A stretch of 64,000 bases of DNA from Escherichia coli. Its GTDB lineage: Bacteria > Pseudomonadota > Gammaproteobacteria > Enterobacterales > Enterobacteriaceae. Of this stretch, positions 38,159-60,753 are shown piece by piece; positions within the stretch are counted from its first letter, which is position 1; the number at the start of each line of letters is the position of its first letter. The notes below the pieces were generated by a model, which was not told where the DNA came from, searched no databases, and saw nothing but the letters and a program-made list of their open reading frames with translations. The translations under genes were made by a program, and so were the position numbers. The stretch lies in NCBI RefSeq assembly GCF_001677475.2, contig NZ_CP015229.1; one strand, 5' to 3'.

Positions 38159-38189
38159 AATGAATACCCAATGCGACCAGCTTCTTATA

Positions 38190-39728: not shown

Positions 39729-39892
39729 GATCGTCTCCTTGCGGTGTGAGGTATAACAAGGGTAGACGTGACTGGCGAAATCTTCGCCAGCCGGTGACAG
39801 CTTTACGACGGCAATCACGAATTTACGGGCAAGGATTACAGAGATAATTGAAAAATCGGCTGACAATTTGCCAGCCGTTGTGGGAATGATGA

Positions 39893-41044
39893 TTACATCG
39901 CAGCGCGATAAATCGCCACAATTTCTTCGTGAGTTGCCTGAATCGGGTTAGTAAATCCGCAGGCATCTTTCAGAGCATTGGTCGCCAGTACCGCGAAATC
40001 TTCTTCTTTCACGTTCAGATCGCGCAGACCTGCCGGAATATCGACTTTCTTCGCCAGTTCACGGATAGCGTTAATGCAGGCTTCTGCACCTTCCGCGTCG
40101 TTTTTACCTGTCACGTTCACGCCCATTGCAGCAGCGCAGTCACGCAGACGTGCGGCAGCTACTTTGCTGTTGAATACCTGAACGTGCGGCAGCAGAACGG
40201 CGTTACATACACCGTGCGGCAGGTTGTAGAAACCGCCTAACTGGTGCGCCATCGCATGAACATAACCCAAAGACGCATTGTTGAACGCCATACCGGCGAG
40301 GAACTGGGCATAAGCCATCGCTTCACGCGCTTTCGCATTGCTGCCATCTTCTACGGCTAACGGCAGGTTTTCGGCAATCATGGTCACGGCTTTCAGTGCG
40401 CAAGCGTCAGTGATCGGCGTTGCGGCAATAGACACATACGCTTCGATAGCGTGTGTTAAGGCATCCATACCCGTTGCAGCGGTCAGTGACTTCGGCATAC
40501 CGATCATCAGAGAGGAGTCATTGACAGAAAGCAGCGGAGTCACGTGTTTATCCACAATCGCCATTTTGATGTGGCGCGCTTCGTCAGTGATAATGCAGAA
40601 ACGGGTCATTTCAGACGCAGTACCCGCCGTGGTGTTGATGGCGATCATCGGCAACTGCGGTTTTGCAGAGCGGTCAACGCCTTCGTAATCGCGAATATCA
40701 CCGCCGTTGGCTGCCACCAGCGCAATGCCTTTCGCACAATCGTGCGGAGAACCACCACCTAAGGAAATCACGCTATCGCAATTATTTTCTTTCAGCAGTT
40801 TGAGGCCTGCGGCGACGTTTTCCGTAGTTGGGTTAGGCTGGGTGCCATCATAAATAACGCTAAAAATATTGCGTTCTTCCAGTGCTTTTTGCACATCGCC
40901 CGCCATACCTAATTTCGTTAAAATATTGTCAGTAACAATTAATGTACGGGTAAAGCCATAGTCTGCCATCATATTCATTGCATCATTCAATGAATCAGCG
41001 CCGATGACATTCACTGAAGGAATAAAAAAGGTTGAAGCTGCCAT
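39893..41044 (-). CDS. yiaY: Iron-containing (group III) alcohol dehydrogenase YiaY
   Basis: 383 aa; Fe-ADH family pattern ([11 protein letters not shown]; conserved His residues in ...HAIEAYV... and ...HAMAHQLGG...). Confidence 0.88.
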
Positions 41045-41232
41045 AAAACACTCCTGGAAGAGTAAAAAGGGCTGGCAGATTACAAAGTATTTTCATTCGG
41101 AAATATGATCAACATTACCGTTTATCAAAATATTTTTAATAAAAAGCACGTTACATTCATCAAATAACGTGCTTCTTTAATATTAATAAGAATTTTGTAT
41201 TAATTCATATTTATTATGAATTAATCATTTCC

Positions 41233-43077: not shown

Positions 43078-44465
43078 TTCAACAACATCTCCAAAAACCG
43101 TTGCTCATCTTCAAGGCAGCGTAAATCCAGCCACAATCGTCCGTCATAAATACGACCAATCACCGGCACTGGCAATTCACGCCAGCGGGCGGCTAATGAC
43201 TCAAGGTGGCTACCGCGTCCATCATGGGGTGTAAACGTTAATGCCGCGCTCGGCAGGCGATCAACCGGCAGCGAACCACTGCCAATCTGCGAAAGACATG
43301 GCATAACCTGGACTGCAAACTCCGCGCCGTAATGTGCGGCAAGGGGAGCCTGTAAACGTTGTGCCTGGATTTGAATGACCTCTGCGCTGCGGGTAAGCAG
43401 GCGCAGGGTCGGTAATTTTTCACTCAGCGCCTCAGGGTGTAAATAAAGACGCAGCGTGGCTTCCAGCGCCGCGAGGGTCATTTTATCCGCGCGTAATGCA
43501 CGCTTCAGTGGATGGCTTTGCAGGCGGGCGATCATCTCTTTTTTACCAACGATAATCCCTGCCTGCGGCCCGCCTAACAACTTGTCGCCGGAGAAGCTCA
43601 CCAGGCTGACGCCCGCCGCAATCAACTCCTGCGGCATCGGCTCTTTCGGCAAACCGTACTGGCTAAGATCGACCAGCGAACCACTGCCTAAATCAGTCAC
43701 TACGGGAACATCCAGTTCTTTGCCAAGCGCCACCAGTTCAGCTTCATCTATCGCTTTGGTGAACCCCTGAATGCTGTAGTTACTGGTATGTACTTTCATC
43801 AACAGTGCGGTATTTTCATTCACCGCCTGACGATAATCATTCGCGTGCGTGCGGTTGGTGGTCCCCACTTCGTGCAGGGTACAGCCAGCCTGACGCATGA
43901 CGTCAGGGATACGAAACGCGCCGCCGATCTCCACCAGTTCGCCACGAGACACCACCACCTCTTTACCGCTGGCAGTGGCCGCCAACATCAATAACACCGC
44001 CGCCGCATTGTTATTAACGATACAGGCATCTTCCGCCCCCGTAATACGGCACAGCAGCTGCGCCAGCGCACGATCGCGATGTCCGCGTCCGGCGTCGTCC
44101 AGATCGTACTCCAGCGTCACCGGCGAACGCATAGCCTGCGCAACGGCTTCCACCGCGGCTTCTGCCTGTAAAGCTCGCCCAAGATTGGTATGCAGCACGG
44201 TTCCCGTCAGGTTGATCACCGGACGCAGCGCGCTCTGCGCTTCTTTCGTCAACCGGGCATCGACTTCTTGCGCCCAGTTCTCACACCACGCGGGCAGCGT
44301 CTGGCTGTCACGAATCACTTCTCGCGCTTCGTCAAGCATCTGACGCAGCAATTCCACCACGCGGGTGTGACCATAAGTATCACGCAAAGAAAGGAAGGAG
44401 CTATCGCGCAATAAGCGATCAATAGCCGGAAGTTGACTATAGAGGGAACGCGTTTCGGTTGTCAT
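43074..44465 (-). CDS. selA: L-seryl-tRNA(Sec) selenium transferase
   Basis: 463-aa ORF recognised as SelA ([21 protein letters not shown]...); candidate PLP-lysine region [13 protein letters not shown]. Confidence 0.95.
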
Positions 44466-45241: not shown

Positions 45242-46378
45242 TCAATGATCCAAATAAAGATAATGCATCCAACTGGTCATTCTCAGCAGCACCTTCCGCA
45301 TCACCGAAACATGGCTGAAATGGTCGGAGTAAACTGCTACCTGGGCGTAAATGCCGTCGGGTAAGGCATCGATATCATCGTTGGGGTCCAGTTCAATGGT
45401 TCCCAGCACACCGTCCGTGCCGGGCACGACCGTTAATGATTGCAATACCCCCTGCGCCTGATAAGAACCGCCTGGCACGACAGGTAAAATACTGGTCAGT
45501 TTGCCGTGGAACACCTGCCCAGGTAGCGCGTTAAACACCACTTCCGCATCATCGCCGGGTTTCAGACGTAACAGCGAGTTCTGCCGAAATTGGGCGACAA
45601 TTTGCCGTTTTTGCTCGGGGATGAAAACCATCACCGGACGTAGCGGCAAGGCAGCTGCGTATGTACCTGGGCGGATCAGTACCTGAGTAACGTAGCCATT
45701 GCTTGGTGCGCGAATGACAGTCTGCTCAAGGTTATATTTTGCTTCAGTAAGTTGCGCTCTTAAGCTCACAATCTGCGACTGCTCGCCGTTAACCATACTG
45801 TCGAGCTGGCTCTGGATCTGCGCCTGCTCCGCCACCGAGCCTTTCACCAGCGCGTCCTGCGCGAGGAAGTTTTGCCGCGCATCGTCGATGTCACGTTCCG
45901 AGAACGGATTCACCGCCGCCTGGCTACCTTTCAGGTAACGTTGATAATTTTTAAACAGACGGTCGCGCTCCGCTGAAACCTGGGTGGTGTTGGCCTGCGC
46001 TTCAGTGAGCTGGGCGCGCAGCGTCTTTATATTATGCGTCGCCGTCATCAGGTCAGCCTGAAGTCTGTCAACTCGCGCCTGGTAACGAACCGGGTCGAGT
46101 TTAAAAAGCACCTCGCCCTTTTGAATAAGCTGATTATTCTTGTCAGTGACTTCAGTAACAATTCCCGTCACCTGTGGCGTGATGGGGATCGCTATCACTG
46201 CCTTTTGCGCGGTAAAAGTGTAAGGATGGTTGTAGTTCATCAATAAAATCAAACCACTCACCAGAAATACGCCTCCCAACGCCGCCGTCGCCAGCGTCCA
46301 CTGATTCACCGGAATGCGGAAGATTTTAAATACTGCCCATGCCAGCGCCACGTAAGTTAAAACAATTAACAGATCCAT
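45242..46378 (-). CDS. yibH: HlyD-family membrane-fusion-type protein YibH (paralog of YiaV)
   Basis: 378 aa; same architecture as yiaV; the N-terminal region and the last ~30 residues are near-identical to YiaV (differing at one position in the final 30, V/M). Confidence 0.85.
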
Positions 46379-46380
46379 AA

Positions 46381-46743
46381 TCAGATCTCCGGGAACGTGG
46401 AATAGTCACTCTTTTTTTCAGCTGCAAGTTGGTGCTCCAGCCGGGAAATACGGTCAGAAAGTGCGGCGATTTCCGGGTCAGTCACTTTCTCCTGCGACGC
46501 AACATGTGACTGCATGCCCCAGCCGCGCTCCGGTTGATAGAGCGTCGCCCAGATCCACAGAAACGGCCAGATAACATGCAGAGTAAACAGGCTAACCCAG
46601 CCCGCCGTATGAATAGCGTCGGCATGGGGATGGTTGCGCTTTTTGGCAATCAAATAAGGGATGTCATGTATCGCGATGATTCCATAAAAAATCACCAGAA
46701 AGACGAAGATCAGCACTCCCAACGCGAAGTAGTTTAGAAACAT
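46381..46743 (-). CDS. yibI: Small inner-membrane protein YibI (DUF3302-type, paralog of YiaW)
   Basis: 120 aa; N-terminal region near-identical to YiaW, C-terminal tail divergent; stop is 2 nt from the yibH start; GAGG Shine-Dalgarno. Confidence 0.85.
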
Positions 46744-47279
46744 ATCTGCCTCGGATTCACGCTTATCAGTGTTGTTTTTTGGCTGGCAGCCGGAAGGGAG
46801 TCAGGCTGATACTTTGACATTAATCTGCGTTTGCCAATCTCGCCATCACACCGAAGGATAATTTTAAAAGGCGATGAGTTGCTCAGTTACAAAACTGTCT
46901 TAAGGCAAAGTCAGAACATGTTGCAGATCACATCAGGTGAATTACCGAAGAAAATATCTTGTGATTCAGATCACAAAAATCTAACAAACCATCAAAACAA
47001 AAATGTGACATTACTCACATTTAAATGCCATTTTTAGCGAAAATCGCCGCCTTGTTGCTTTTTTACACAAGCGTTTTGTGATGAACGTCACGCCAATTAC
47101 CTCTCTACCCCCTATATTTATGTGACTGATATCACACAAAAGACCGTCGACTGGACAGTTAACCGATTCAGTGCCAGATTTCGCAGTATCTACAAGGTCC
47201 GGCTACCTCTGCCGCCACATTAACAAAAAACCTCGGGCTTCCAGCCTGCGCGACAGCAAACATAAGAAGGGGTGTTTTT
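46744..47279 (+). promoter_or_regulatory. mtlADR promoter/operator region
   Basis: 536-bp AT-rich non-coding region upstream of mtlA; known to carry the sigma70 promoter with CRP and MtlR operators. Individual sites were not mapped here. Confidence 0.5.
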
Positions 47280-49193
47280 ATGTCATCCGATATTAAGATC
47301 AAAGTGCAAAGCTTTGGTCGTTTCCTCAGCAACATGGTGATGCCAAATATCGGCGCGTTTATCGCGTGGGGTATCATCACCGCGTTATTTATTCCAACAG
47401 GGTGGTTACCGAACGAAACGCTGGCGAAGCTGGTCGGGCCGATGATCACTTATCTCCTGCCGCTGCTGATCGGTTATACCGGTGGTAAGCTGGTAGGCGG
47501 CGAACGTGGCGGCGTAGTCGGTGCCATTACCACCATGGGCGTTATCGTCGGCGCAGACATGCCGATGTTCCTCGGTTCTATGATTGCAGGTCCGCTGGGC
47601 GGCTGGTGCATTAAGCACTTCGACCGCTGGGTAGACGGTAAGATCAAATCCGGTTTTGAGATGCTGGTGAATAACTTCTCCGCAGGCATCATCGGGATGA
47701 TCCTCGCTATTCTGGCATTCCTCGGCATTGGCCCGATTGTTGAAGCCCTGTCCAAAATGCTGGCTGCGGGCGTTAACTTCATGGTTGTCCATGACATGCT
47801 GCCGCTGGCGTCTATCTTTGTTGAACCGGCGAAAATCCTGTTCCTCAACAACGCCATTAACCACGGTATCTTCTCGCCGCTGGGCATTCAGCAGTCCCAT
47901 GAACTGGGTAAATCCATCTTCTTCCTGATTGAAGCTAACCCAGGTCCAGGTATGGGCGTGCTGCTGGCGTACATGTTCTTTGGTCGTGGCAGTGCTAAAC
48001 AATCTGCGGGCGGTGCGGCAATCATCCACTTCCTGGGTGGTATCCACGAAATCTACTTCCCGTATGTGCTGATGAATCCGCGTCTGATTCTGGCCGTTAT
48101 TCTCGGCGGTATGACTGGCGTGTTCACGCTAACTATCCTGGGCGGTGGTCTGGTTTCTCCGGCATCTCCAGGTTCTATCCTTGCGGTACTGGCGATGACA
48201 CCAAAAGGTGCTTATTTCGCTAACATCGCGGGTGTGTGTGCGGCGATGGCTGTCTCCTTCGTTGTCTCTGCTATTTTGCTGAAAACCAGCAAAGTGAAAG
48301 AAGAAGATGATATTGAAGCAGCAACTCGTCGTATGCAGGACATGAAAGCTGAGTCTAAAGGTGCGTCTCCGCTGTCTGCGGGCGATGTGACTAACGACCT
48401 GAGCCACGTACGTAAAATCATCGTTGCCTGTGACGCCGGTATGGGTTCCAGTGCAATGGGCGCAGGCGTGCTGCGTAAGAAAATTCAGGATGCAGGTCTG
48501 TCGCAGATTTCGGTCACTAACAGCGCGATCAACAACCTGCCGCCAGATGTGGACCTGGTCATCACTCACCGTGACCTGACCGAACGCGCTATGCGCCAGG
48601 TTCCGCAGGCACAGCATATTTCGCTGACCAACTTCCTCGACAGCGGCTTGTACACCAGCCTGACCGAACGTCTGGTTGCTGCCCAGCGCCATACTGAAAA
48701 CGAAGTAAAAGTGAAAGACAGTCTGAAAGACAGCTTTGACGATTCCAGTGCTAACCTGTTCAAGCTAGGCGCGGAGAACATCTTCCTCGGTCGCAAAGCG
48801 GCCACCAAAGAAGAAGCGATTCGTTTTGCTGGCGAGCAACTGGTGAAAGGCGGTTACGTTGAGCCGGAATATGTTCAGGCGATGCTGGATCGTGAAAAAC
48901 TGACCCCGACTTATCTGGGTGAGTCTATCGCGGTGCCACACGGTACGGTTGAAGCGAAAGATCGCGTACTCAAAACGGGCGTCGTGTTCTGCCAGTACCC
49001 GGAAGGCGTACGCTTCGGTGAAGAAGAAGATGACATTGCCCGTCTGGTGATTGGTATTGCTGCCCGTAACAACGAGCACATTCAGGTTATAACCAGCCTG
49101 ACCAATGCACTGGATGATGAGACTGTCATCGAGCGTCTGGCACACACCACCAGCGTGGATGAAGTGCTGGAACTGCTGGCAGGTCGTAAGTAA
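47280..49193 (+). CDS. mtlA: PTS mannitol-specific EIICBA component
   Basis: 637-aa ORF recognised as MtlA: N-terminal polytopic EIIC, then EIIB (candidate phospho-cysteine in IVACDAGMGSS) and C-terminal EIIA. Confidence 0.97.
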   Translation: MSSDIKIKVQSFGRFLSNMVMPNIGAFIAWGIITALFIPTGWLPNETLAKLVGPMITYLLPLLIGYTGGKLVGGERGGVVGAITTMGVIVGADMPMFLGSMIAGPLGGWCIKHFDRWVDGKIKSGFEMLVNNFSAGIIGMILAILAFLGIGPIVEALSKMLAAGVNFMVVHDMLPLASIFVEPAKILFLNNAINHGIFSPLGIQQSHELGKSIFFLIEANPGPGMGVLLAYMFFGRGSAKQSAGGAAIIHFLGGIHEIYFPYVLMNPRLILAVILGGMTGVFTLTILGGGLVSPASPGSILAVLAMTPKGAYFANIAGVCAAMAVSFVVSAILLKTSKVKEEDDIEAATRRMQDMKAESKGASPLSAGDVTNDLSHVRKIIVACDAGMGSSAMGAGVLRKKIQDAGLSQISVTNSAINNLPPDVDLVITHRDLTERAMRQVPQAQHISLTNFLDSGLYTSLTERLVAAQRHTENEVKVKDSLKDSFDDSSANLFKLGAENIFLGRKAATKEEAIRFAGEQLVKGGYVEPEYVQAMLDREKLTPTYLGESIAVPHGTVEAKDRVLKTGVVFCQYPEGVRFGEEEDDIARLVIGIAARNNEHIQVITSLTNALDDETVIERLAHTTSVDEVLELLAGRK

Positions 49194-49197
49194 TCCA

Positions 49198-49385
<188 letters not shown>

Positions 49386-49421
49386 CCCTCTCGGGTAAAA
49401 ACATTGATGAAGGTTAATACT

Positions 49422-50570
49422 ATGAAAGCATTACATTTTGGCGCAGGTAATATCGGTCGTGGCTTTATCGGTAAACTGCTGGCAGACGCGGGTATCCAAC
49501 TGACGTTTGCCGATGTCAATCAGGTGGTACTTGATGCCCTGAATGCCCGTCATAGCTATCAGGTTCATGTGGTCGGTGAAACCGAGCAGGTAGATACCGT
49601 TTCCGGCGTCAATGCCGTCAGCAGCATTGGTGATGATGTCGTTGATCTGATTGCTCAGGTTGATTTAGTCACTACCGCCGTTGGTCCGGTTGTGCTGGAA
49701 CGTATTGCCCCGGCAATCGCCAAAGGGCTGGTGAAACGTAAAGAACAAGGTAATGAATCCCCGCTGAACATCATCGCTTGTGAAAACATGGTCCGCGGCA
49801 CCACACAGCTGAAAGGCCATGTGATGAACGCCCTGCCGGAAGATGCCAAAGCGTGGGTAGAAGAACACGTTGGCTTTGTTGATTCCGCCGTTGACCGCAT
49901 CGTGCCGCCTTCGGCTTCTGCAACCAACGATCCGCTGGAAGTGACGGTAGAAACATTCAGCGAATGGATTGTCGATAAAACTCAGTTCAAAGGCACGCTG
50001 CCAAACATTCCTGGTATGGAGTTAACCGACAACCTGATGGCGTTTGTCGAACGTAAACTCTTCACCCTGAACACGGGTCATGCTATAACCGCGTACCTCG
50101 GAAAACTGGCCGGTCATCAGACCATTCGTGACGCTATTCTCGACGAGAAAATCCGCGCGGTGGTTAAAGGTGCGATGGAAGAAAGTGGTGCAGTATTGAT
50201 CAAGCGCTACGGCTTTGACGCTGACAAGCATGCGGCGTACATCCAGAAAATCCTCGGCCGTTTCGAGAACCCGTATCTGAAAGATGATGTAGAGCGCGTA
50301 GGCCGTCAGCCGCTGCGTAAACTGAGTGCTGGCGACCGTCTGATCAAGCCACTGCTGGGTACGCTGGAATACGGCCTTCCGCACAAGAATCTGATTCAGG
50401 GGATTGCTGGTGCAATGCACTTCCGCAGTGAAGATGATCCGCAGGCTCAGGAGCTGGCAGCACTGATCGCTGACAAAGGCCCGCAGGCGGCGCTGGCACA
50501 GATTTCCGGTCTTGATGCCAACAGCGAGGTTGTATCCGAGGCGGTAACCGCTTATAAAGCAATGCAATAA
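49422..50570 (+). CDS. mtlD: Mannitol-1-phosphate 5-dehydrogenase
   Basis: Start at internal ATG 49422 ([20 protein letters not shown]...), 382 aa; NAD-binding GAGNIGRG; the upstream part of the ORF is the palindrome-rich spacer. Confidence 0.96.
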
Positions 50571-51157
50571 TGGTGGACCAGGCGCAGGACACCCTGCGCC
50601 CGAATAACAGATTGTCAGATATGCAGGCAACAATGGAACAAACCCAGGCCTTTGAAAACCGTGTGCTTGAGCGTCTGAATGCTGGCAAAACCGTGCGAAG
50701 CTTTCTGATCACCGCCGTCGAGCTTTTGACCGAGGCGGTAAATCTTCTGGTGCTTCAGGTATTCCGCAAAGACGATTACGCGGTGAAGTATGCTGTAGAA
50801 CCGTTACTCGACGGCGACGGTCCGCTGGGCGATCTTTCTGTGCGTTTAAAACTCATTTACGGGTTGGGTGTCATTAACCGCCAGGAATACGAAGATGCGG
50901 AGCTACTGATGGCATTGCGTGAAGAGCTAAATCACGACGGCAACGAGTACGCGTTTACCGATGATGAAATCCTTGGACCCTTTGGTGAACTGCATTGCGT
51001 GGCGGCGTTACCACCGCCGCCACAGTTTGAACTTGCAGACGCCAGTTTGTATGCAATGCAAATTCAGCGTTACCAACAGGCTGTGCGATCAACAATGGTC
51101 CTTTCACTGACAGAGCTGATTTCCAAAATCAGCTTAAAAAAAGCCTTTCAAAAGTAA
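50570..51157 (+). CDS. mtlR: Mannitol operon repressor
   Basis: 195-aa ORF recognised as MtlR; ATG shares one nucleotide with the mtlD stop (TAATG). Confidence 0.92.
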   Translation: MVDQAQDTLRPNNRLSDMQATMEQTQAFENRVLERLNAGKTVRSFLITAVELLTEAVNLLVLQVFRKDDYAVKYAVEPLLDGDGPLGDLSVRLKLIYGLGVINRQEYEDAELLMALREELNHDGNEYAFTDDEILGPFGELHCVAALPPPPQFELADASLYAMQIQRYQQAVRSTMVLSLTELISKISLKKAFQK

Positions 51158-51167
51158 GTACTTTCGC

Positions 51168-51377
51168 TTACTTCTCCTCTACCTGTTTCGGCCGATAAAG
51201 CCGACGATAATACTCCAGACGTTGTAGATATAACGGCACGCTTTCATCAGGTATTCCGGACGGAATCGCGTTACGGGGAGGTAGTTTTTTCAGATACTCC
51301 CGGAACGCCTGGCTGGATGCCATGAAATCTACGGCTTTATCGATAAGAAGCGGAACGTTTTCACCTAATTTGCCCAT
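51168..51377 (-). CDS. yibT: Small uncharacterised protein YibT
   Basis: 69-aa [44 protein letters not shown]...; position as in K-12. Confidence 0.75.
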
Positions 51378-51660
51378 GATGATATCTCCGAATTACCCCG
51401 CGCCGGGAATGCGCGGCCGCCAATTTTAGTTTAGATCCCGGTATAAATGACATTAAGGAAAACGTGCTCAATCCTCAATAATCATCCGCTTCTGTTAATT
51501 ATCTTTTTTCTATAAATTTCTTAGTTAATCAACAAATTGCGTGCTTTTTAAGCAAGTTAATGATTACGTTATAGAACTATTGCAATGTCATCAGTTGTGA
51601 ACAAAGCACCTGGTCGCGCATACTAGGGGCTATAAATTTATCTTTATCAGAAGTCATCAC

Positions 51661-52023
51661 ATGAAAGAAGTCGAAAAAAACGAAATCAAACGTCTCAGCG
51701 ATCGTCTGGACGCCATCCGTCACCAGCAGGCCGATCTGTCGCTGGTTGAAGCCGCAGACAAATATGCCGAACTGGAAAAAGAGAAAGCTACGCTGGAAGC
51801 TGAAATTGCCCGCCTGCGTGAAGTTCATAGCCAGAAACTCAGCAAAGAAGCACAAAAGCTGATGAAGATGCCGTTCCAGCGTGCGATTACCAAAAAAGAA
51901 CAAGCCGATATGGGTAAGCTGAAGAAGAGTGTCCGTGGGTTAGTCGTAGTGCATCCGATGACCGCACTGGGTCGTGAAATGGGTCTGCAAGAGATGACCG
52001 GGTTCTCAAAGACAGCGTTTTAA
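51661..52023 (+). CDS. yibL: Uncharacterised coiled-coil protein YibL
   Basis: 120-aa [45 protein letters not shown]... Confidence 0.8.
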
Positions 52024-52513
52024 CCCTCTTACCTGTATATCTCCCTCACATCCCGCGTTTCTAAATGCGGGATGCAACAAATATCCTCCTCTTTTTCCTC
52101 TGTTACCTCGTAGAGTCTACTTTTTACCAATGGCACTAAATCTGAAAATGCATTCAGTAAAAGGTTTGGTTCGACGCCTAAAAATGGAAGATATCATTCA
52201 TAAAATAAAACTTTTGCCGTTATTTTTTCCATCTACATTCTAAAAACTCACCCAAAACATTTATTGTGTGAATATTAAATGAAAGCTATTTTTCTGCTTT
52301 AAATGCAGTGTTTGACATCTGATAACCCTCCTCATTAAAATCCGCCTCCCTAACACAATTAAACAATTTTAAAACTTAATAAATAATTTTCATAACAAAT
52401 ATATTCGCAACATTCATAAAGCCAGCCGTATAAATCGCAAAAGCATCAACCACAAATGGACACATCCCTTAGACCGCGTTGGTATCAGGGATGATATGTA
52501 AGGATAACTTTAT

Positions 52514-53197
52514 ATGAAAGTGAATAAATTATTGATAAGCGTCCTGGCGGCTTCGACAATACTGATGCTGTCAGGTTGTGATTACGTCGAAAAAACGAAA
52601 GTCGTTGATGAACTCACAAAACAACAAGAAGAACAAAAGGCCAGAATTGATCAACTCGAAAAACGATTAGAACAAGAAACCAAAAAGACAAACACCATTG
52701 AAAAACAAAGCATTAGTCTGATAAACAGTACAAAGCTGCTGGCTCAGGTAGTGAAAGAGATTAAGCATCAGCAAGATACATTTGTCTTTACTGAATTTAA
52801 CCCCGATCAAACAAAATATTTCATTTTAAATAACGGTTCGGTAGGTATTGCCGGCAGGGTGTTATCTGTTGAAGCAATAGAAAATGGCAGTGTTATTCAT
52901 ATGTCATTGGCCAATTTATTAAGTGTTCCCGTATCAAATATTGGTTTTCATGCCACCTGGGGCGGTGAAAGACCGGGTGATCAAAAAGAATATGCCAAAT
53001 GGCAACAACTGCTATTTAGCACCAACATGAACTCCACGCTGAAATTATTACCAGGTCAATGGCAAGACATTAACTTGACGTTAAAAGGGGTGTCTCCCAA
53101 CAACCTGAAATACCTGAAGTTGGCTATTAATATGCAGAATATCAACTTCGACAACCTTCCACCTGCTGATAACCGGCAGAAAAAAAGCAAAAAATAA
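52514..53197 (+). CDS. Inner-membrane lipoprotein with coiled coil, SadB-like putative export helper for the downstream trimeric autotransporter
   Basis: 227 aa; signal peptide with lipobox LSGC followed by Asp at +2 (the inner-membrane retention signal); long coiled-coil (QQEEQKARIDQLEKRLEQETKK), then a beta-rich domain; Shine-Dalgarno AAGGA; AT-rich codon usage; 43 bp upstream of the adhesin gene on the same strand. Confidence 0.65.
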   Translation: MKVNKLLISVLAASTILMLSGCDYVEKTKVVDELTKQQEEQKARIDQLEKRLEQETKKTNTIEKQSISLINSTKLLAQVVKEIKHQQDTFVFTEFNPDQTKYFILNNGSVGIAGRVLSVEAIENGSVIHMSLANLLSVPVSNIGFHATWGGERPGDQKEYAKWQQLLFSTNMNSTLKLLPGQWQDINLTLKGVSPNNLKYLKLAINMQNINFDNLPPADNRQKKSKK

Positions 53198-53240
53198 ATG
53201 CAGTCATTGCACTTATATCAAGGAATAGAGAGCAACAACA

Positions 53241-56200
53241 ATGAACAAAATTTTTAAAGTTATCTGGAACCCTGCGACGGGAAGTTACAGCGTCGCCAGC
53301 GAAACGGCAAAAAGCCGTGGAAAGAAGAGCGGTCGCAGCAAGCTGTTAATTTCTGCGTTGGTTGCCGGTGGGTTGCTGTCGTCGTTCGGGGCGAGTGCTT
53401 CTGTCAGTCTTGATGGTGGTACATATTCTGATGGCACCGAACTTACTGATGCATGGATTGCTATTGGTAAAGGTGCGAAAGCTTCCTCTGTAGGCGGTAG
53501 CACAGCAAGTATTTCTATTGGGGTAAATGCAATCTCTGCTGCTGGGGCTACTGCAGTGGGTTATAACAGTAATGCTACTGGACAAAGTTCAGTATCAATG
53601 GGGCAGCTATCGAAAGCCACAGGGAGCAGGGGGGTTGCTATCGGCAGTGGAGCTAGTGCCATTGGCGACTATACAGTTGCATTAGCGGTTGGCTCCAGTG
53701 CTAGCGGTGAGAGTGCAGTGGCAATAGGTCAAGGTTCCGGAGCCAAAAATAAAGGTAGTGTTGCGTTAGGTAACAGAGCGTCATCATTAGGAGAAAAATC
53801 GGTAGCACTAGGGGTAGACAGTAAGGCCACTGGTGACGATAGCCTGGCATTAGGTAGAAACGCCTTGGGCAATAGCACAGGTTCCATTGCAATGGGTGCC
53901 GCAAGCGAAGCCAATGGATTATATAGTTTGGCATTAGGCGCAAGCAGCGTAGCTAACGCGGACAATACCGTTGCGCTCGGATATGGTGCCAATGCAGCCA
54001 AAGCTGGAGCAATGGCTTTCGGTCAGGCAGGAAAGGCAGATGGTGTAAATTCTATTGCGCTGGGTAATAAAAGTCAGTCAAGCGGCGAAAACAGTATTGT
54101 GCTTGGACAAGAAAGCTATGCTGGTAGTGAAAAAAGTATTGCGATTGGTAGCCTGTCCAACGTAACCGGTGTTAACTCCGTTGCTCTGGGCACAGAGTCT
54201 ACTGCCGTGGAAGATAATACTGTTTCAGTAGGTAACGACACGCTGCAGCGTAAAATTGTCCATATGGGAAAAGGCGATATTAGCAGTACCAGTACTGATG
54301 CCATCAATGGTTCACAGCTTTATGATATCAGTAAGTCAGTTGCAGACCGTCTGGGCGGCGGTGCCTCCGTGAGTACTGCCGGGGTTGTTAACGCCCCTAA
54401 CTACAAACTGCAAAGTGGTAACTTTAATAATGTTGGCGACGCATTAAAGGGTCTTGATGATAATACGTTGCAATGGGACTCGCTTAAAAAAGTCTACAGT
54501 GCAAAACACGGTTCCGATGCCACCAGCAAAATCACCAACGTTACGGCGGGTGAGCTGAACGCATCCAGTACCGACGCCGTTAACGGTTCTCAGTTGAAAA
54601 CCACTAACGACAATGTGGCAACCAACACCACTAATATCAGCAACCTGACCGGCGAAGTTGCTAACAACACCACCAATATCACTAACCTGACGAATGATGT
54701 TGCCGCCAACACCACCAGTATCACCAACCTGGCTGATACGGTGACTAACCTTGGTGAAGATGCGCTGAAATGGGATGACACCGCTGGCGTATTCACTGCT
54801 GCACACGGCACCGAAGCCACCAACAAAATCACCAATGTTACGGCAGGTGAGCTGACGGAGACCAGTACCGATGCGGTTAACGGTTCTCAGTTGAAAACCA
54901 CTAACGATAACGTGGCAACCAACACCACCAGTATCACCAACCTGACTGATACAGTGACTAACCTTGGTGCCGACGCGCTGGCATGGGATGACGCCTCAGG
55001 TGCATTCACCGCCAAACACGGCACCGAAGCCACCAACAAAATCACTAACGTTACGGCAGGTGAACTGACGGAGACCAGTACCGATGCCGTTAACGGTTCT
55101 CAGTTGAAAACCACTAACGATAACGTGGCAACCAACACCACCAATATCAGCAACCTGACCGGCGAAGTTGCTAACAACACCACCAACATCACTAACCTGA
55201 CGAATGATGTTGCCGCCAACACCACCAGTATCACCAACCTGGCTGATACGGTGACTAACCTTGGTGCCGACGCGCTGGCATGGGATGACGCCTCAGGTGC
55301 ATTCACCGCCAAACACGGCACCGAAGCCACCAACAAAATCACTAACGTTACGGCGGGTGAGCTGACGGAGACCAGTACTGATGCCGTTAACGGTTCTCAG
55401 TTAAAAACCACTAACGACAATGTGGCAACCAACACCACCAACATCACCAATCTGGCTGATACGGTGAACAACCTCGGTGAAGATGCGCTGAAATGGGATG
55501 ACGCCGCAAGCGCATTCACCGCTGCACACGGCACCGAAGCCACCAGCAAAATCACTAACGTCACCGCTGGAACAATCTCGTCTACCAGTACCGACGCTGT
55601 TAACGGTGGGCAACTCTTTAGCTTAAGTGATTCACTGGCAGACTATTTTGGCGGTAACGCCTCGGTTGATGAAAACGGTGTATTTACTGGCCCGTCCTAC
55701 ACCATCGGTAGCAACAGCTACGATAACGTAGGTGATGCGCTGGCGGCGATTAACACCTCCTTTAGCACTTCACTGGGCGACGCTCTGCTGTGGGATGAAA
55801 CGGCAAGTGCATTCAGCGCCGGCCACGGTGGCAATGCCAGCAAAATTACCAATGTCGCAAACGGTACTATTTCTGAAACCAGCACCGATGCCATCAATGG
55901 TGGGCAACTCTACGGTGTGAGCAACTCTGTTGTTGATGCCCTGGGCGGTGGCGCCGCAGTAAATGCTGACGGTAGCATCAGTGCGCCGACGTACTCCATT
56001 GCTGATACCGATTACAATAACGTCGGTGATGCTCTGGACGCGATCGACTCAACCCTGGATGATGCGCTGCTCTGGGACGCAACCGCCGGTGAAAATGGTG
56101 CGTTCAGCGCCAGCCGCGATGGCAAAGCCAGCGTAATCACTAATGTTGCTAATGGTGATATTTCTGAAACCAGTACTGATGCAATTAATGGTTCACAGTT

Positions 56201-57905
56201 GTTCGCCACCAACACGTTGATCAATCAGCAAAATGAGATCATCAACCAGATTGCCGGTAATACCAGCACAGACTACATCGAAGAGAACGGTGCGGGTCTG
56301 AACTATGCGCGTACTAATGACACCGGCTTAACCTTTATTGATGCGAGCGCATCAGGTACTGGCGCTACAGCGGTGGGTTATAACGCTGTCGCTTCCGGCG
56401 AAAGCAGTGTCGCAATTGGTCAGAATAGCAGCAGCAGCGTTGATACTGGTATCGCGCTGGGTAGCGAATCCGTCTCCAGCCGTGTGATTGTTAAAGGTTC
56501 TCGTAACACCAGCGTAACCGAAGAAGGCGTTGTGATTGGTTACGACACCACTGACGGCGAACTGCTTGGTGCATTGTCGATTGGCGATGATGGTAAGTAC
56601 CGTCAGATCATCAACGTTGCTGATGGTACTGAATCCCATGACGCCGTGACTGTACGCCAGTTGCAAAACGCCATTGGTGCGGTCGCCACTACGCCGACCA
56701 AGTACTACCATGCCAACTCAACGGAAGAAGATTCACTGGCGGTAGGTACTGACTCGCTGGCGATGGGCGCGAAAACTATCGTCAATGGTAATGCGGGTAT
56801 TGGTATCGGCCTGAATACTCTGGTTCTGGCAGATGCCATCAACGGTATTGCTATCGGTTCTAACGCACGCGCCAACCATGCAAACAGTATTGCAATGGGT
56901 AATGGTTCTCAGACCACTCGCGGCGCTCAGACTGGCTACACCGCCTACAACATGGACGCGCCGCAGAACTCTGTCGGTGAGTTCTCTGTCGGCAGTGAAG
57001 ACGGTCAACGTCAGATCACTAATGTCGCGGCGGGTTCGGCAGATACCGATGCCGTTAACGTTGGTCAGTTGAAAGTGACGGACGCACAGGTTTCCCAGAA
57101 CACCCAGAGCATTACTAACCTGAATACTCAGGTAACGAATCTGGATACCCGCGTCACCAATATCGAAAACGGTATTGGCGATATCGTAAGCACCGGTAGC
57201 ACCAAGTACTTCAAGACCAACACCGATGGCGTAGATGCTAACGCGCAGGGTAAAGACAGTGTTGCGATTGGCTCTGGCTCTATTGCTGCCGCTGATAACA
57301 GCGTTGCGCTGGGTACTGGCTCTGTGGCAAACGAAGAAAATACGATCTCCGTAGGTTCTTCCACTAACCAACGCCGTATCACCAACGTTGCCGCTGGTAA
57401 AAATGCTACTGACGCGGTTAACGTTGCGCAGTTGAAGTCTTCCGAAGCAGGCGGCGTGCGCTATGACACCAAAGCTGACGGTTCTGTTGATTACAGCAAC
57501 ATCACTCTCGGCGGTGGTAATGGCGGAACGACTCGCATCAGCAACGTTTCCGCTGGCGTTAACAACAACGACGCGGTGAACTACGCGCAGTTGAAGCAAA
57601 GCGTGCAGGAAACGAAGCAATACACCGATCAGCGCATGGTTGAGATGGATAACAAACTGTCCAAAACCGAAAGCAAGTTGAGCGGTGGTATCGCTTCTGC
57701 AATGGCGATGACCGGTCTGCCGCAGGCTTACACGCCAGGTGCCAGCATGGCCTCCATTGGTGGCGGTACATACAACGGTGAATCGGCTGTTGCTTTAGGT
57801 GTGTCGATGGTGAGCGCCAACGGTCGTTGGGTCTACAAATTACAAGGTAGTACCAATAGCCAGGGTGAATACTCCGCCGCACTTGGTGCCGGTATTCAGT
57901 GGTAA
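53241..57905 (+). CDS. upaG: Trimeric autotransporter adhesin (YadA-like head/stalk repeats and C-terminal membrane anchor), UpaG/EhaG/SadA-like
   Basis: 1554 aa; extended signal peptide [27 protein letters not shown]...; many head-type repeats (SVALG, NSIALG, AVAIG); neck-like motifs (TDAVNGSQL); tandem stalk repeats; C-terminal YadA-type anchor ending ...AALGAGIQW. Confidence 0.8.
54540..55600 (+). repeat. In-frame tandem coding repeats (alternating ~297-nt and ~213-nt units) within the adhesin stalk
   Basis: GTTAACGGTTCTCAGTTGAAAACCACTAACGA recurs at about 54579, 54875, 55088 and 55385; the encoded 99-aa and 71-aa units ([21 protein letters not shown]...[21 protein letters not shown]) are near-identical at nucleotide level. 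Confidence 0.9.
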
Positions 57906-57907
57906 TG

Positions 57908-57925
57908 ACCCATTAACAAATGGGT
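57908..57925 (+). terminator. Stem-loop immediately after the adhesin stop codon
   Basis: ACCCATT AACA AATGGGT, a perfect 7-bp inverted repeat 3 nt after TAA; no strong T-run, so terminator function is uncertain. Confidence 0.4.
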
Positions 57926-57945
57926 AAACGCCAAATTGCCTGATG

Positions 57946-58022
57946 CGCTACGCTTATCAGGCCTACAGGGGATTCTGCACATTCCTGTAGGCCGGATAAG
58001 GCGTTCACGCCGCATCCGGCAA
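57946..58022. repeat. BIME: pair of inverted REP elements
   Basis: GCCTGATGCGCTACGCTTATCAGGCCTAC and GTAGGCCGGATAAGGCGTTCACGCCGCATCCGGCA. Confidence 0.85.
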
Positions 58023-58321
58023 GATAAGACGCACCAGGTCAATGGTCTAAGGGCAATTCTCTGACGGGGATTGCCCTTTTCTTTACCAGACATCTCCCTA
58101 TCAAAAAATTGGCCCTACCAATTCTTCGCTTATCTGACCACTGGTTCACAGTTCCCCAATTAAAACTCACATTAACGTTGCCAATACAAAACATTTAGTT
58201 AACTATTCATTGTCATTATCCCTACACAACAAAATTGGCAGTGCCACTTTTACACAACGTGTGACAAGGAGATGAGCAACAGACTCATTACACGATGTGC
58301 GTGGCCTCCAGGAGACCTGCA

Positions 58322-59977
58322 ATGAATCTCTGGCAACAAAACTACGATCCCGCCGGGAATATCTGGCTTTCCAGCCTGATAGCATCGCTTCCCATCCTGT
58401 TTTTTTTCTTTGCGCTTATTAAGCTCAAACTAAAAGGCTATGTCGCCGCTACATGGACAGTCGTTATCGCTCTGACTGTCGCGCTATTGTTCTACAAAAT
58501 GCCGGTCGCCAATGCGCTGGCCTCAGTGGTTTATGGCTTCTTCTACGGTTTGTGGCCCATCGCGTGGATCATTATTGCAGCGGTGTTCGTCTATAAGATC
58601 TCGGTGAAAACCGGACAGTTTGACATCATCCGCTCGTCTATTCTTTCAATAACCCCTGACCAGCGCCTGCAAATGCTGATCGTCGGTTTCTGTTTCGGCG
58701 CATTTCTCGAAGGTGCCGCAGGCTTTGGCGCACCGGTAGCAATTACCGCCGCATTGCTGGTCGGGCTGGGCTTTAAACCGCTGTACGCCGCCGGGCTGTG
58801 CCTGATTGTTAACACCGCGCCGGTGGCATTTGGCGCGATGGGTATTCCGATTCTGGTTGCCGGACAGGTAACAGGCATCGACAGCTTTGAGATTGGCCAG
58901 ATGGTGGGACGTCAGCTACCGTTTATGACCATTATCGTGCTGTTCTGGATCATGGCGATTATGGACGGCTGGCGGGGTATCAAAGAGACGTGGCCTGCGG
59001 TCGTGGTCGCGGGAGGCTCGTTTGCCATCGCACAGTACCTTAGCTCTAACTTTATTGGGCCGGAACTGCCGGACATTATCTCTTCGCTGGTATCGCTGCT
59101 CTGCCTGACACTGTTCCTCAAACGTTGGCAGCCGGTGCGCGTTTTCCGCTTCGGCGATCTGGGCGCATCGCAAGTTGATATGACGCTGGCTCATACCGGT
59201 TACACCGCAGGTCAGGTGTTACGCGCCTGGACACCGTTCCTGTTCCTGACCGCCACCGTAACGCTGTGGAGTATTCCGCCGTTTAAAGCCCTGTTCGCTT
59301 CGGGTGGTGCGCTGTATGAATGGGTGATCAATATTCCGGTGCCGTACCTCAATAAACTGGTTGCCCGTATGCCGCCAGTGGTCAGCGAAGCGACAGCGTA
59401 TGCCGCCGTGTTTAAGTTCGACTGGTTCTCTGCCACCGGTACCGCCATTCTTTTTGCTGCCCTGCTCTCGATTGTCTGGCTGAAGATGAAACCATCTGAC
59501 GCTATCAGCACCTTCGGCAGCACGCTGAAAGAACTGGCTCTGCCCATCTACTCCATCGGTATGGTGCTGGCGTTCGCCTTTATCTCGAACTATTCCGGAC
59601 TATCATCAACGCTGGCGCTGGCACTGGCGCACACCGGCCATGCATTCACCTTCTTCTCGCCGTTCCTCGGCTGGCTTGGTGTCTTCCTGACCGGATCGGA
59701 TACCTCATCTAACGCCCTGTTCGCCGCCCTGCAAGCCACTGCAGCACAACAAATTGGCGTTTCTGACCTGTTGTTGGTTGCCGCCAACACCACCGGTGGT
59801 GTCACCGGTAAGATGATCTCTCCGCAATCTATCGCTATCGCCTGTGCGGCGGTAGGCCTGGTAGGCAAAGAGTCAGATCTGTTCCGCTTTACCGTCAAAC
59901 ACAGCCTGATCTTCACCTGTATGGTGGGCGTGATTACCACGCTTCAGGCCTACGTCTTAACGTGGATGATTCCGTAA
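58322..59977 (+). CDS. lldP: L-lactate permease
   Basis: Start at internal ATG 58322 ([30 protein letters not shown]...), 551 aa, polytopic membrane protein recognised as LldP. Confidence 0.95.
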
Positions 59978-60753
59978 TGATGGTTATACCCAGACGCCTG
60001 TCAGACGAGGTAGCTTCCCGTGTGCGGGCGCTGATTGAAGAACAAAATCTGGAACCGGGCATGAAGTTGCCCGCTGAACGCCAACTGGCGATGCAGCTCG
60101 GCGTGTCGCGTAATTCACTGCGCGAGGCGCTGGCGAAACTGGTGAGTGAAGGTGTGCTTCTTAGTCGTCGCGGTGGCGGGACGTTTATTCGCTGGCGCCA
60201 TGACGTGTGGTCGGAACAAAACATCGTCCAGCCGCTGAAAACGCTAATGGCCGATGATCCGGATTACAGCTTCGATATTCTGGAAGCCCGCTACGCCATT
60301 GAGGCCAGCACCGCCTGGCACGCAGCAATGCGTGCCACACAAGCCGATAAAGAAAAGATACAGCTCTGCTTTGAAGCGACGCTGAGTGAAGACCCGGATC
60401 TCGCCTCGCAAGCGGACGTTCGTTTTCATCTGGCAATTGCCGAAGCCTCACATAACATCGTGCTGCTGCAAACCATGCGCGGTTTCTTTGATGTCCTGCA
60501 ATCTTCAGTGATGCAAAGTCGTCAGCGGATGTATCTGGTGCCGCCCGTTTTTTCGCAACTGACTGAACAGCATCAGGCGGTCATTAACGCCATTTTTGCC
60601 GGTGATGCCGACGGTGCGCGTAAAGCAATGATGTCGCACCTCAGCTTTGTCCACACCACCATGAAACGATTCGATGAAGATCAGGCTCGCCGTGCACGCA
60701 TTACCCGCCTGCCCGGTGAGCATAATGAGCATTCGAGGGAGAAAAACGCATGA
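59977..60753 (+). CDS. lldR: GntR/FadR-family L-lactate operon regulator
   Basis: Start at ATG 59977 ([25 protein letters not shown]...), 258 aa; GntR-type HTH (...[25 protein letters not shown]); shares one nucleotide with the lldP stop. Confidence 0.9.

Follow-up and report, generated by a model that had tools for sequence, protein, structure and literature searches.

A sadBA operon between the mtl and lld operons of an Escherichia coli strain, with an allele similar to those of cryptic-clade Escherichia

The window analyzed here is the whole 64,000-nucleotide stretch of Escherichia coli contig NZ_CP015229.1 (assembly GCF_001677475.2). It contains two adjacent genes between yibL and lldP (Table 1). 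One encodes a homolog of the lipoprotein SadB. The other encodes a trimeric autotransporter adhesin (TAA). The gene order is mtlD-mtlR-yibT-yibL-sadB-TAA-lldP-lldR, with sadB directly 5' of the TAA gene and the pair between the mtl and lld operons. E. coli K-12 contains neither gene, and 371 bp separate its yibL from lldP. The original prediction had described a two-gene unit between yibL and lldP that is missing in K-12, and both open reading frames lie exactly where it had placed them. The two genes are the known enterobacterial sadBA operon, whose adhesin gene in E. coli is upaG/ehaG. The operon, its position between mtl and lld, the inner-membrane localization through Asp at position +2, and the K-12 deletion were already reported by Grin et al. 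in 2014 (PMC3953254).

Table 1. Features of the sadBA locus and identities of its segments to E. coli 042 and E. ruysiae.
Feature	Position	Strand	Description
yibL	51661-52023		NCBIfam YibL equivalog (E 8e-57); left neighbor of the sadB unit
AT-rich intergenic/regulatory region	52024-52513	+	490 bp; 34.7% GC vs 50.8% in the window
Hairpin just 3' of the yibL stop	52049-52074	+	11-bp stem
Candidate sigma-70 promoter	52312-52341	+	TTGACA-18 nt-TAAAAT; 11 of 12 consensus matches
sadB homolog	52514-53197	+	227-aa ORF
Lipobox Cys22 of the lipoprotein	52577-52579		
Asp23 (+2) of the lipoprotein	52580-52582		
Coiled coil of the lipoprotein	52592-52774		aa ~27-87
sadB-adhesin spacer	53198-53240	+	43 nt; purine-rich ribosome-binding stretch AAGGAATAGAGAG
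Trimeric autotransporter adhesin gene	53241-57905	+	1554-aa ORF
Tandem repeats in the stalk	54623-55607	+	TRF: period 213 bp (71 aa; 2.1 and 1.8 copies), 42-bp (14-aa) sub-repeat
YadA anchor of the adhesin	57720-57902		aa 1494-1554
Two REP-type palindromic elements	57907-58030	+	Sub-threshold naRNA4 (REP-derived) matches at 57907-57963 and 57990-58030
Intrinsic-terminator-like hairpin at the putative operon end	58049-58078	+	13-bp stem with 6 GC pairs, then TTCTTT
lldP	58295-59977		Right neighbor of the adhesin gene
Cryptic-clade-like tract (E. ruysiae/E. marmotae) in an E. coli-like backbone	51650-59150		Segment identities below; second patch at ~59800-60650
Segment: left flank			97.5% to 042 vs 94.2% to E. 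ruysiae
Segment: yibL			90.9% to 042 vs 97.5% to E. ruysiae
Segment: upstream region			No match to 042 vs 89.4% to E. ruysiae
Segment: sadB (nucleotide)			74.4% to 042 vs 88.9% to E. ruysiae
Segment: adhesin 3' part			83.5% to 042 vs 98.1% to E. ruysiae
Segment: lldP middle			98.7% to 042 vs 91.7% to E. ruysiae
Segment: lldP 3' end to lldR			91.5% to 042 vs 97.6% to E. ruysiae

The lipoprotein begins with MKVNKLLISVLAASTILMLSGC-DY. Its signal peptide and lipobox (LSGC) occupy aa 1 to 22, and Asp23 follows the lipobox Cys22. G21, C22, D23, and Y24 are invariant across 13 homologs. A coiled coil follows and keeps a single uninterrupted heptad register over residues 27 to 87. The a positions are V31, Q38, I45, L52, T59, S66, T73, V80, and Q87, and the d positions are L34, Q41, L48, E55, I62, L69, L76, and I83. 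The remainder forms a beta-sandwich domain (aa ~89 to 215). The inner-membrane retention signal and the long coiled coil that had been read from the sequence were thus both found, and so was the proposed similarity to SadB. The protein matches PDB 4C47 ("inner membrane lipoprotein"; the SadB crystal structure) from residue 23 to residue 227 without gaps (E 5.3e-70). We found 180 homologs, of which the named ones are DUF3251 or SadB/YajI proteins. The Pfam-A scan gave no domain at E <= 0.001, with only insignificant coiled-coil-like matches and no DUF3251, and NCBIfam gave no model above its curated cut-offs. The family assignment is therefore drawn from the PDB match and the homolog names. The missing profile match appears to reflect incomplete coverage by the libraries searched, not a lack of homology. 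By these sequence comparisons, the lipoprotein is a SadB homolog, and its Asp+2 signature predicts an inner-membrane location. It may well be a trimer. The original prediction had also called the gene easily missed, which it is not, as RefSeq routinely annotates it as "DUF3251 domain-containing protein" or "SadB/YajI family lipoprotein."

SadB of Salmonella enterica serovar Typhimurium (STM3690, PDB 4C47) is like the window lipoprotein in length, and residues 3 to 207 of 4C47 pair with its residues 23 to 227. The two proteins share the lipobox Cys22, the Asp at +2, and an architecture in which a coiled coil of about nine heptads precedes a beta-sandwich domain. Their overall identity is only 50%; it is lower in the coil (36%) and higher in the C-terminal domain (57%). 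YajI (PDB 2JWY) is the E. coli paralog of SadB. It is a lipoprotein with the same beta-sandwich topology and shares the RefSeq family name. According to Grin et al. (PMC3953254), YajI is ~14% identical to SadB, lies at the locus yajC-secDF / nrdR, and has no adjoining adhesin. A survey of 106 SadB homologs found them in Enterobacterales only, adjoining TAAs (bioRxiv 10.64898/2026.01.22.700529). TpgA of Acinetobacter, the helper of the TAA AtaA, is the sole other described dedicated helper whose gene adjoins a TAA gene. TpgA is unrelated to SadB. It contains BamE-like and OmpA-like peptidoglycan-binding domains and acts at the outer membrane/cell wall, whereas SadB acts at the inner membrane.

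The adhesin contains an ESPR (aa 1 to 48), an N-terminal YadA head (aa ~99 to 333), a long stalk with ~13 neck/stalk motifs and three internal heads, and a C-terminal YadA anchor. Pfam matched the ESPR (E 1.9e-15) and the anchor (YadA_anchor, PF03895, E 2.2e-19) and gave >10 YadA_head and ~13 YadA_stalk matches. The protein matches the SadA fragment structures 2YO0 (E 3.5e-141) and 2YO3 (E 9.8e-91), and its anchor also matches Hia and other anchor structures (3EMO, 2GR7). In NCBIfam, it matched other TAA models such as Vomp, Ata, EmaA, BimA, and YadA, all below the cut-off. In RefSeq, the orthologs carry the names ehaG or upaG. An open frame of 4.6 kb that shows recognizable domains along its whole length is far beyond chance. 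The expected ESPR, head, stalk, and anchor were all present, and with the SadA and EhaG matches and the common locus they agree with the prediction of a YadA-type adhesin of the UpaG/EhaG/SadA family. Judged from its sequence and position, it is a YadA-type TAA of the SadA/UpaG/EhaG group of positional orthologs.

EhaG of EHEC, UpaG of UPEC, and SadA of Salmonella share the locus and the design of ESPR, head, long repetitive stalk, and YadA anchor with the window adhesin. UpaG, EhaG, and SadA have been studied as colonization factors and vaccine antigens. The window adhesin and EhaG of E. coli H19 are 65% identical end to end, and its identities with the adhesins of E. coli 042 and E. ruysiae are 60% and 88%. 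Its C-terminal ~450 residues are almost identical to those of EhaG. It is 1554 aa long, and the H19 and 042 proteins are 1616 and 1743 aa long. Stalk repeat number differs among strains, and the near-identical GCA_019083685.1 lacks one 71-aa unit. The tip (aa ~51 to 200) also differs, like the repeat number, even among near-identical strains. The head and repeat region of the window adhesin gave no DNA-level alignment to any of the 5426 complete E. coli genomes.

The ~490 bp of AT-rich DNA predicted 5' of the unit are present. The GC content falls to 30 to 36% at 52000-52600 and is 38.3% in sadB. The upstream region contains no ORF of >37 aa. A search of 50500-58600 against Rfam (E <= 1) retrieved only REP-like naRNA4 and chance-level matches, none of them in the 490-bp region. 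PADLOC gave no defense-system match. A hairpin lies just 3' of the yibL stop. The fold of 52020-52110 has a free energy of -17.4 kcal/mol (z = -5.96), and none of 200 shuffles was as stable. The yibL transcript probably ends at this hairpin, which would set yibL apart from the sadBA unit. No T-run directly follows its stem, so the terminator function is presumptive.

A candidate sigma-70 promoter lies ~170 nt 5' of sadB, and it implies a 5' UTR of ~165 nt. Overall, promoter-like sites are no more frequent in the region than in shuffles, so conservation is the evidence for this candidate. Of nine upstream regions that otherwise align poorly, eight, that of Pseudocitrobacter included, share the motif TTTGACA..N..CATTA(A/G)AATCC. 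Outside the motif, alignment to E. coli H19 and K-12 is mostly noise. The window allele and the common E. coli allele do not align upstream of sadB except at the motif. The alleles of E. coli H19, E. coli 042, and E. ruysiae have the same low GC content here (33 to 36%). A passage in PMC5012682, citing Totsika 2012, states that H-NS represses UpaG in UPEC. The DNA upstream of sadB is AT rich and of the kind that H-NS represses in E. coli orthologs, and the window allele may be under H-NS control as well.

The spacer between sadB and the adhesin gene contains no terminator-like site and no stable fold (z = +0.47). The Salmonella sadB-sadA spacer is 44 bp (PMC3953254). In E. coli H19, an extra A in a poly-A run lengthens SadB and makes it overlap the ATG of ehaG. 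Two REP-type elements follow the adhesin gene, and the right border of the unit sits in them. The K-12 deletion junction is within this REP region, near 57963, and the K-12 alignment restarts at CTACAGGG(T)GATTCTGCACATTCC. The terminator-like hairpin beyond the REP elements is kept in K-12 and H19.

The sadBA genes occur at the same mtl-lld site in E. marmotae, E. ruysiae, Pseudocitrobacter, Citrobacter youngae, and Enterobacter wuhouensis. Grin et al. also place them between mtl and lld in Escherichia, Salmonella, and Shigella (PMC3953254). Our contig search with the SadB alignment retrieved only 10 loci. Its peptide patterns (TKYFILNN and WQQLLF[SN]T) were too specific and missed Salmonella, for which the distribution is taken from the literature (PMC3953254). 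The locus was present in 4158 of 5426 complete E. coli genomes (77%), and 1268 were without it. An identical K-12-type empty junction was found in 1261 genomes, almost exactly the number without the locus, and this suggests one deletion event. K-12 carries a published ~5-kb deletion of sadBA (PMC3953254).

The allele in the window differs from the common E. coli one. The window is nearer to E. ruysiae and E. marmotae in a stretch from yibL into the 5' part of lldP, and again in lldR. Elsewhere it is 97.5 to 98.3% identical to E. coli. The 3' half of the adhesin gene is 98 to 100% identical to E. ruysiae, and its 3' 2.2 kb have 98% DNA identity. SadB of E. ruysiae and E. marmotae is 88 to 91% identical to the window SadB, and their upstream regions align at ~90%. 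The flanks are unlike those of the cryptic clades (~94%) and like those of E. coli (97.5% to 042), and the window is therefore a mosaic. An E. ruysiae-like 3' half of the adhesin gene between E. coli-like flanks argues for allelic replacement by homologous recombination. The donor of the window allele would be a member of the cryptic Escherichia clades near E. ruysiae, and this donor and direction are suggested by a handful of loci. No genome among the 5426 complete E. coli genomes covers >= 80% of the window sadBA allele. Even the best-matching complete E. coli genomes are only ~97 to 98% identical to the strain, which makes it a member of a poorly sampled lineage. Taken together, we consider it highly probable that the sadBA operon is ancestral at the mtl-lld site, that K-12 lost it through a single deletion, that the window allele was imported from cryptic-clade Escherichia by homologous recombination, and that SadB is a display helper for the adhesin.

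The original prediction had called the operon horizontally acquired. This holds for the allele, which lies in a cryptic-clade-like tract, but it fails for an inserted island. An island would have been placed recently between yibL and lldP by an unrelated donor, with K-12 as the ancestral empty site and the AT-rich DNA as foreign and H-NS silenced. The absence of the unit in K-12, the low GC content at 52000-52600, and the distance of the allele from the common E. coli one (sadB 74% nucleotide and 65 to 66% protein identity) would fit such an event. At least five genera, sister taxa included, nevertheless carry the gene pair at this site, as do most complete E. coli genomes, and the empty junction is a single identical one whose K-12 state is published as a deletion. 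The tRNA scan of the window found none, and the ORFs at the unit borders include no integrase-like or other mobility gene. The AT-rich DNA had been taken as a mark of acquisition. It is limited to the promoter region and sadB and is common to all divergent alleles, so it does not mark a recent acquisition, and the adhesin gene has a genome-typical GC content of 51.5% (vs 50.8% in the window). Recent insertion is largely refuted by synteny, and we regard it as extremely unlikely. A different alternative to import is vertical descent of an old sadBA allele within a deep E. coli lineage. Several allele classes would then be older than the split of the Escherichia species and would have persisted as a trans-species polymorphism, kept by diversifying selection on a surface antigen. 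E. marmotae contains both SadB classes (P0006 at 91% identity vs P0038/P0060 at 65 to 67%), the window backbone is only 97 to 98% identical to any complete E. coli genome, and surface adhesins are typical targets of balancing selection. The switch in identity, however, reaches housekeeping genes (yibL, 97.5% to E. ruysiae vs 90.9% to 042; lldR, 97.6% vs 91.5%), and the adhesin 3' part is up to 100% identical to E. ruysiae over 300-bp windows. The middle of lldP is E. coli-like (98.7% to 042) and lies between cryptic-like patches, which indicates a recombination mosaic and not lineage sorting of one gene. Vertical inheritance without recombination is thus improbable.

The two genes might also be mere neighbors, with a lipoprotein that has its own function, as its paralog YajI does, and an adhesin that is transcribed and exported independently. 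YajI-type paralogs do occur without adhesins (PMC3953254), and SadA is still surface exposed, at a lower level, without SadB (PMC3953254, PMC11054257). Cross-linking, pull-down, and phage display by Grin et al. gave no demonstrated direct SadB-SadA contact (PMC3953254). Against this, the pair is strictly conserved across genera with a 43- to 44-nt spacer, K-12 lost both genes together, and the SadB homologs of Enterobacterales adjoin TAAs (106 homologs; bioRxiv 10.64898/2026.01.22.700529). Surface display of SadA is ~three-fold higher with SadB, and an effect of SadB on display was measured by two independent laboratories (PMC3953254, PMC11054257). Independent function of the two genes is very unlikely.

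With SadB as a helper of the adhesin, the operon could work as follows. Transcription would most likely start at the conserved TTGACA-18-TAAAAT promoter. The transcript would cross the terminator-free spacer into the adhesin gene and stop at the hairpin past the two REP elements. SadB would be exported by Sec, lipidated at Cys22, and retained in the inner membrane via Asp23. It would form a trimer through its coiled coil of about nine heptads, with the three beta-sandwich domains facing the periplasm. Salmonella SadB is a trimer with nine heptads, and its Asp+2 and fractionation place it at the inner membrane (PMC3953254). By homology with that protein, the window SadB may transiently hold or synchronize the three nascent adhesin chains near the Sec exit. 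Direct SadB-SadA contact was not demonstrated by Grin et al., so this chaperone step is itself hypothetical. The repetitive passenger would then thread in register through the 12-stranded barrel of three YadA anchors, inserted by Bam. SadB action may raise the amount and integrity of surface adhesin about three-fold, an enhancement known only for Salmonella SadB/SadA (PMC3953254, PMC11054257). The displayed adhesin could promote aggregation, biofilm formation, and adhesion to matrix or cells.

The sadBA genes of this window add nothing mechanistic. A helper for type Vc secretion is textbook-level knowledge, with a crystal structure since 2014. The allele indicates that the whole sadBA cassette, together with neighboring housekeeping DNA, may be replaced by recombination across Escherichia species. 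This replacement and the variation of the adhesin tip are relevant to UpaG/EhaG as a typing marker or vaccine target. Helper and adhesin could also travel and diverge as a co-adapted cassette, with one recombination tract carrying the promoter region, sadB, and the adhesin gene together from one Escherichia species to another. We consider this unlikely. The divergence of SadB is greatest in the coil, in parallel with the variable adhesin passenger, which would fit allele-specific matching. If the cassette is co-adapted, SadB of one class would poorly serve a TAA of another class. Allele-specific matching, if true, would provide a first handle on what SadB recognizes.

The unit lies downstream of mtlD, mtlR, yibT and yibL. 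Both ORFs of the original prediction, a lipoprotein gene (sadB) and the gene for a trimeric autotransporter adhesin (TAA), were confirmed where it had placed them. The AT-rich DNA that it described upstream of sadB was also found. The GC content was 34.7% over these 490 bp (52024-52513), 38.3% in sadB, 51.5% in the adhesin gene and 50.8% in the whole window. The unit is indeed missing from K-12, which contains neither gene and in which yibL and lldP are 371 bp apart.

Features of the sadB-adhesin locus and of the rest of the window (nucleotide positions in the window; aa, residues of the adhesin)
Feature	Position	Strand	Details
cspA thermoregulator 5' UTR	9250-9677	+	Rfam, 501 bits
sok antitoxin RNA	9960-10111	-	Rfam, 120 bits; just downstream of the cspA thermoregulator
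ES036 (CssrF) sRNA	28951-28993	-	38.9 bits, barely above gathering threshold (37.6)
yibL	51661-52023		Upstream of sadB; NCBIfam YibL equivalog, E 8e-57
Hairpin 3' of yibL	52049-52074		Strong; -17.4 kcal/mol, z = -5.96
Best promoter-like site, TTGACA-18-TAAAAT	52312-52341		11/12 consensus matches
sadB	52514-53197	+	ORF, 227 aa
Spacer, sadB to adhesin gene	53198-53240		43 nt
Adhesin gene	53241-57905	+	ORF, 1554 aa
ESPR	aa 1-48		Pfam
YadA_head repeat block	aa ~99-333		Pfam
YadA_stalk (neck) motifs	adhesin		Pfam, about 13
Internal head segments	adhesin		Pfam, three
YadA_anchor	aa 1494-1554		Pfam
Tandem repeats	54623-55607		213-bp and 42-bp units, in stalk
REP-type palindromes, two	57907-58030		Sub-threshold naRNA4 matches (Rfam); between adhesin stop and terminator
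Terminator-like hairpin	58049-58078		3' of the REP-like elements
lldP	58295-59977		Downstream of adhesin gene, with lldR

The sadB product begins with MKVNKLLISVLAASTILMLSGCDY. It contains the lipobox LSGC with Cys22, followed by Asp23. It matches PDB 4C47 (Salmonella SadB, "inner membrane lipoprotein") with an E value of 5.3e-70. Residues 23-227 align without gaps to chain residues 3-207, and the identity is 50% (103/205) overall, lower in the coiled-coil part (36%) and higher in the C-terminal domain (57%). A single unbroken heptad register runs across residues 27-87, with V31, Q38, I45, L52, T59, S66, T73, V80 and Q87 at the a positions and L34, Q41, L48, E55, I62, L69, L76 and I83 at the d positions. 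The coil is about nine heptads long, like that of Salmonella SadB. G21, C22, D23 and Y24 are unchanged in 13 SadB homologs from Escherichia, Salmonella and Pseudocitrobacter. Among these, the C-terminal domain is strongly conserved, and the signal peptide and coil are variable, including in length. Pfam-A and NCBIfam release 20 did not recognize the product above threshold. RefSeq names its orthologs "DUF3251 domain-containing protein" or "SadB/YajI family lipoprotein," and precomputed Pfam annotation is empty for nearly all of the 120 SadB homologs listed. The predicted SadB-like lipoprotein, with Asp at +2 and a long coiled coil, is borne out.

The second gene encodes a YadA-type adhesin of the UpaG/EhaG/SadA family, as predicted from the ORF and now supported by its Pfam domains, structure matches and similarity to EhaG. 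It matches GCN4-fusion entries (2YO0/2YO1, E 3.5e-141; 2YO3, 9.8e-91; also 2YNZ, 2YO2, 2YNY and 3ZMF), which we take to be the SadA fragments of Hartmann et al. 2012. Further TAA structures also match strongly. Over its whole length, the adhesin shares 65% identity with EhaG of E. coli H19, and the last ~450 residues are nearly identical. RefSeq labels matching genes ehaG, upaG or "YadA-like family protein." The adhesin head behaves as a hypervariable cassette, seemingly swapped independently of the remaining gene, because its tip differs between close relatives and is poorly matched elsewhere. The GCA_019083685.1 locus (labeled E. coli) is ~100% identical to the window with two exceptions only: the tip (aa ~51-200; 53390-53840) is ~40% identical, and one 71-aa repeat unit is absent. 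No good match to the tip was found among 5,426 complete E. coli genomes, the best being 68.7% over half of it.

The adhesin gene is known from Escherichia, Salmonella and Shigella, where it lies between the mtl and lld operons and is preceded, 44 bp upstream, by a small lipoprotein gene of the same operon (Grin et al. 2014, J Biol Chem, PMC3953254). That work refers to the Hartmann SadA fiber structure and reports a ~5-kb deletion of both genes in E. coli K-12. It predicted SadB to be an inner-membrane lipoprotein from Asp at +2 and confirmed this with fractionation and mass spectrometry. Trimeric SadB has beta-sandwich domains and a coiled coil of nine heptads, and it made surface SadA more abundant and more resistant to protease; a direct SadB-SadA interaction could not be demonstrated (PMC3953254). 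A second laboratory found display about three-fold higher with SadB (PMC11054257). EhaG, UpaG and SadA are positional orthologs (PMC7247748). In a 2026 survey, the 106 SadB homologs found all came from Enterobacterales and adjoined TAAs (bioRxiv 10.64898/2026.01.22.700529). Every element of the original functional interpretation is correct and already known. The operon was correctly identified as this known operon, and nothing in the identification is new.

The spacer contains no terminator-like site and no stable fold (z = +0.47); its Salmonella counterpart is 44 bp (PMC3953254). In E. coli H19 (locus L002, 5510-5570), the poly-A run that ends sadB has one additional A, which abolishes the usual stop. 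H19 SadB is longer by 16 residues, to a TAA overlapping the ehaG ATG. In H19 at least, this places the spacer inside one translated and transcribed context. The homopolymer at 53180-53195 is a potential slippage site. Upstream of sadB (52024-52513), we found no ORF longer than 37 aa and no Rfam match, and the number of promoter-like sites was not above chance. There is good evidence that the TTGACA-18-TAAAAT site is the operon promoter, because the motif is kept in 8 of 9 otherwise barely alignable upstream regions (window, E. ruysiae, E. marmotae, E. coli 042, H19, SCPM-O-B-8794, Escherichia sp. E1V33 and Pseudocitrobacter). A palindromic motif, ATTGATTGACA...CGATCATTAAAATCCGCGCGATCAAT, encloses this promoter in common E. 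coli-type and Pseudocitrobacter alleles (L006 ~20385-20430, L011, L012 and L014; upstream-region alignment, columns 101-150). It could be an operator. The alleles of the window, E. ruysiae and E. marmotae do not have it, and the allele classes may therefore be regulated differently.

Homology, synteny, mosaic ancestry and the features of the sequence itself were shown directly here; the following steps are modeled on Salmonella homology. SadB would be exported by Sec, lipidated at Cys22 and held in the inner membrane by Asp23, and would trimerize via its coiled coil. Close to the inner membrane, three unfolded adhesin chains may be handled transiently, which would allow the repetitive passenger to assemble in register. 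The 12-stranded anchor would be inserted in a Bam-dependent manner and the passenger exported as a hairpin. The fiber would serve adhesion, aggregation and biofilm formation. The AT-rich promoter may be repressed by H-NS; a passage in PMC5012682 cites H-NS repression of UpaG.

Elsewhere in the window, the sok antitoxin RNA match indicates that a chromosomal hok/sok-type locus adjoins cspA. The aldB-yiaY neighborhood is variable, since only 1,270 of 5,426 genomes cover at least 80% of 25001-44000. At ~39841, the window is without a ~1.37-kb segment of E. coli 042 that contains, between aldB and yiaY, the gene for a Fic family protein.

None of the 5,426 complete E. coli genomes covers at least 80% of 52024-57905, and matching parts are ~82-84% identical; the remaining window shares 97.5-98.3% identity with complete E. 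coli genomes. For SadB, the identity is 65-66% with the common E. coli protein, 88% with that of E. ruysiae, 91% with that of E. marmotae and 97% with those of a small cluster labeled E. coli. Segment identities, backed by sliding windows, alternate between E. coli 042 and E. ruysiae. They were, respectively, 97.5% and 94.2% in the left flank, 90.9% and 97.5% in yibL, no match and 89.4% in the upstream region, 74.4% and 88.9% in sadB, 83.5% and 98.1% in the adhesin 3' 2.2 kb, 98.7% and 91.7% in the middle of lldP, and 91.5% and 97.6% from the lldP 3' end to lldR. Identity to E. ruysiae reaches 100% in several 300-bp windows within the adhesin 3' part. By sequence identity, this is a recombination mosaic, with a tract at ~51650-59150 and a second patch at ~59800-60650 assigned to cryptic-clade Escherichia.

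CP089930.1 (L015; "E. coli strain E69," listed as the representative of a separate species) shares 94% identity with the window over 45491-52960, but the N-terminal part of its SadB is 99% identical; its locus record ends inside sadB. It is probably a cryptic-clade Escherichia under an E. coli label and a further candidate for the donor lineage. Short contigs of Oscillospiraceae, Bacillota and Collinsella MAGs (L013, L016 and L017) contain Escherichia-type yibL-sadB-adhesin DNA, with 94% identity to the window over yibL in L013. They are almost certainly misbinned Escherichia contigs.

The original prediction had called the operon likely to be horizontally acquired. The allele itself is foreign to E. 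coli; insertion as an island is largely ruled out by the shared site, the one empty junction, composition and the lack of a tRNA in the window and of mobility genes at the borders. The same gene pair is present at the same site in E. marmotae, E. ruysiae, Pseudocitrobacter vendiensis, Citrobacter youngae and Enterobacter wuhouensis, and the locus is present in 4,158 of 5,426 complete E. coli genomes. An 80-bp probe spanning the K-12 junction was complete in 1,261 genomes, essentially the 1,268 without the locus, which argues that the empty state is the product of one event. In K-12, a point a dozen bases past the yibL stop is fused directly to the REP region that follows the adhesin gene in the window. 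The REP elements may have mediated this deletion, because its endpoint falls between the two palindromes. Only the promoter region and sadB are low in GC, to the same extent in every allele class (33-36% and 37-42%); the adhesin gene has a normal composition. No tRNA was found in the 64-kb window by tRNA scan, and no mobility gene was found among the ORFs at the unit borders. The operon is better described as an ancestral locus that was lost in K-12 and whose allele in this strain was replaced via interspecies homologous recombination.
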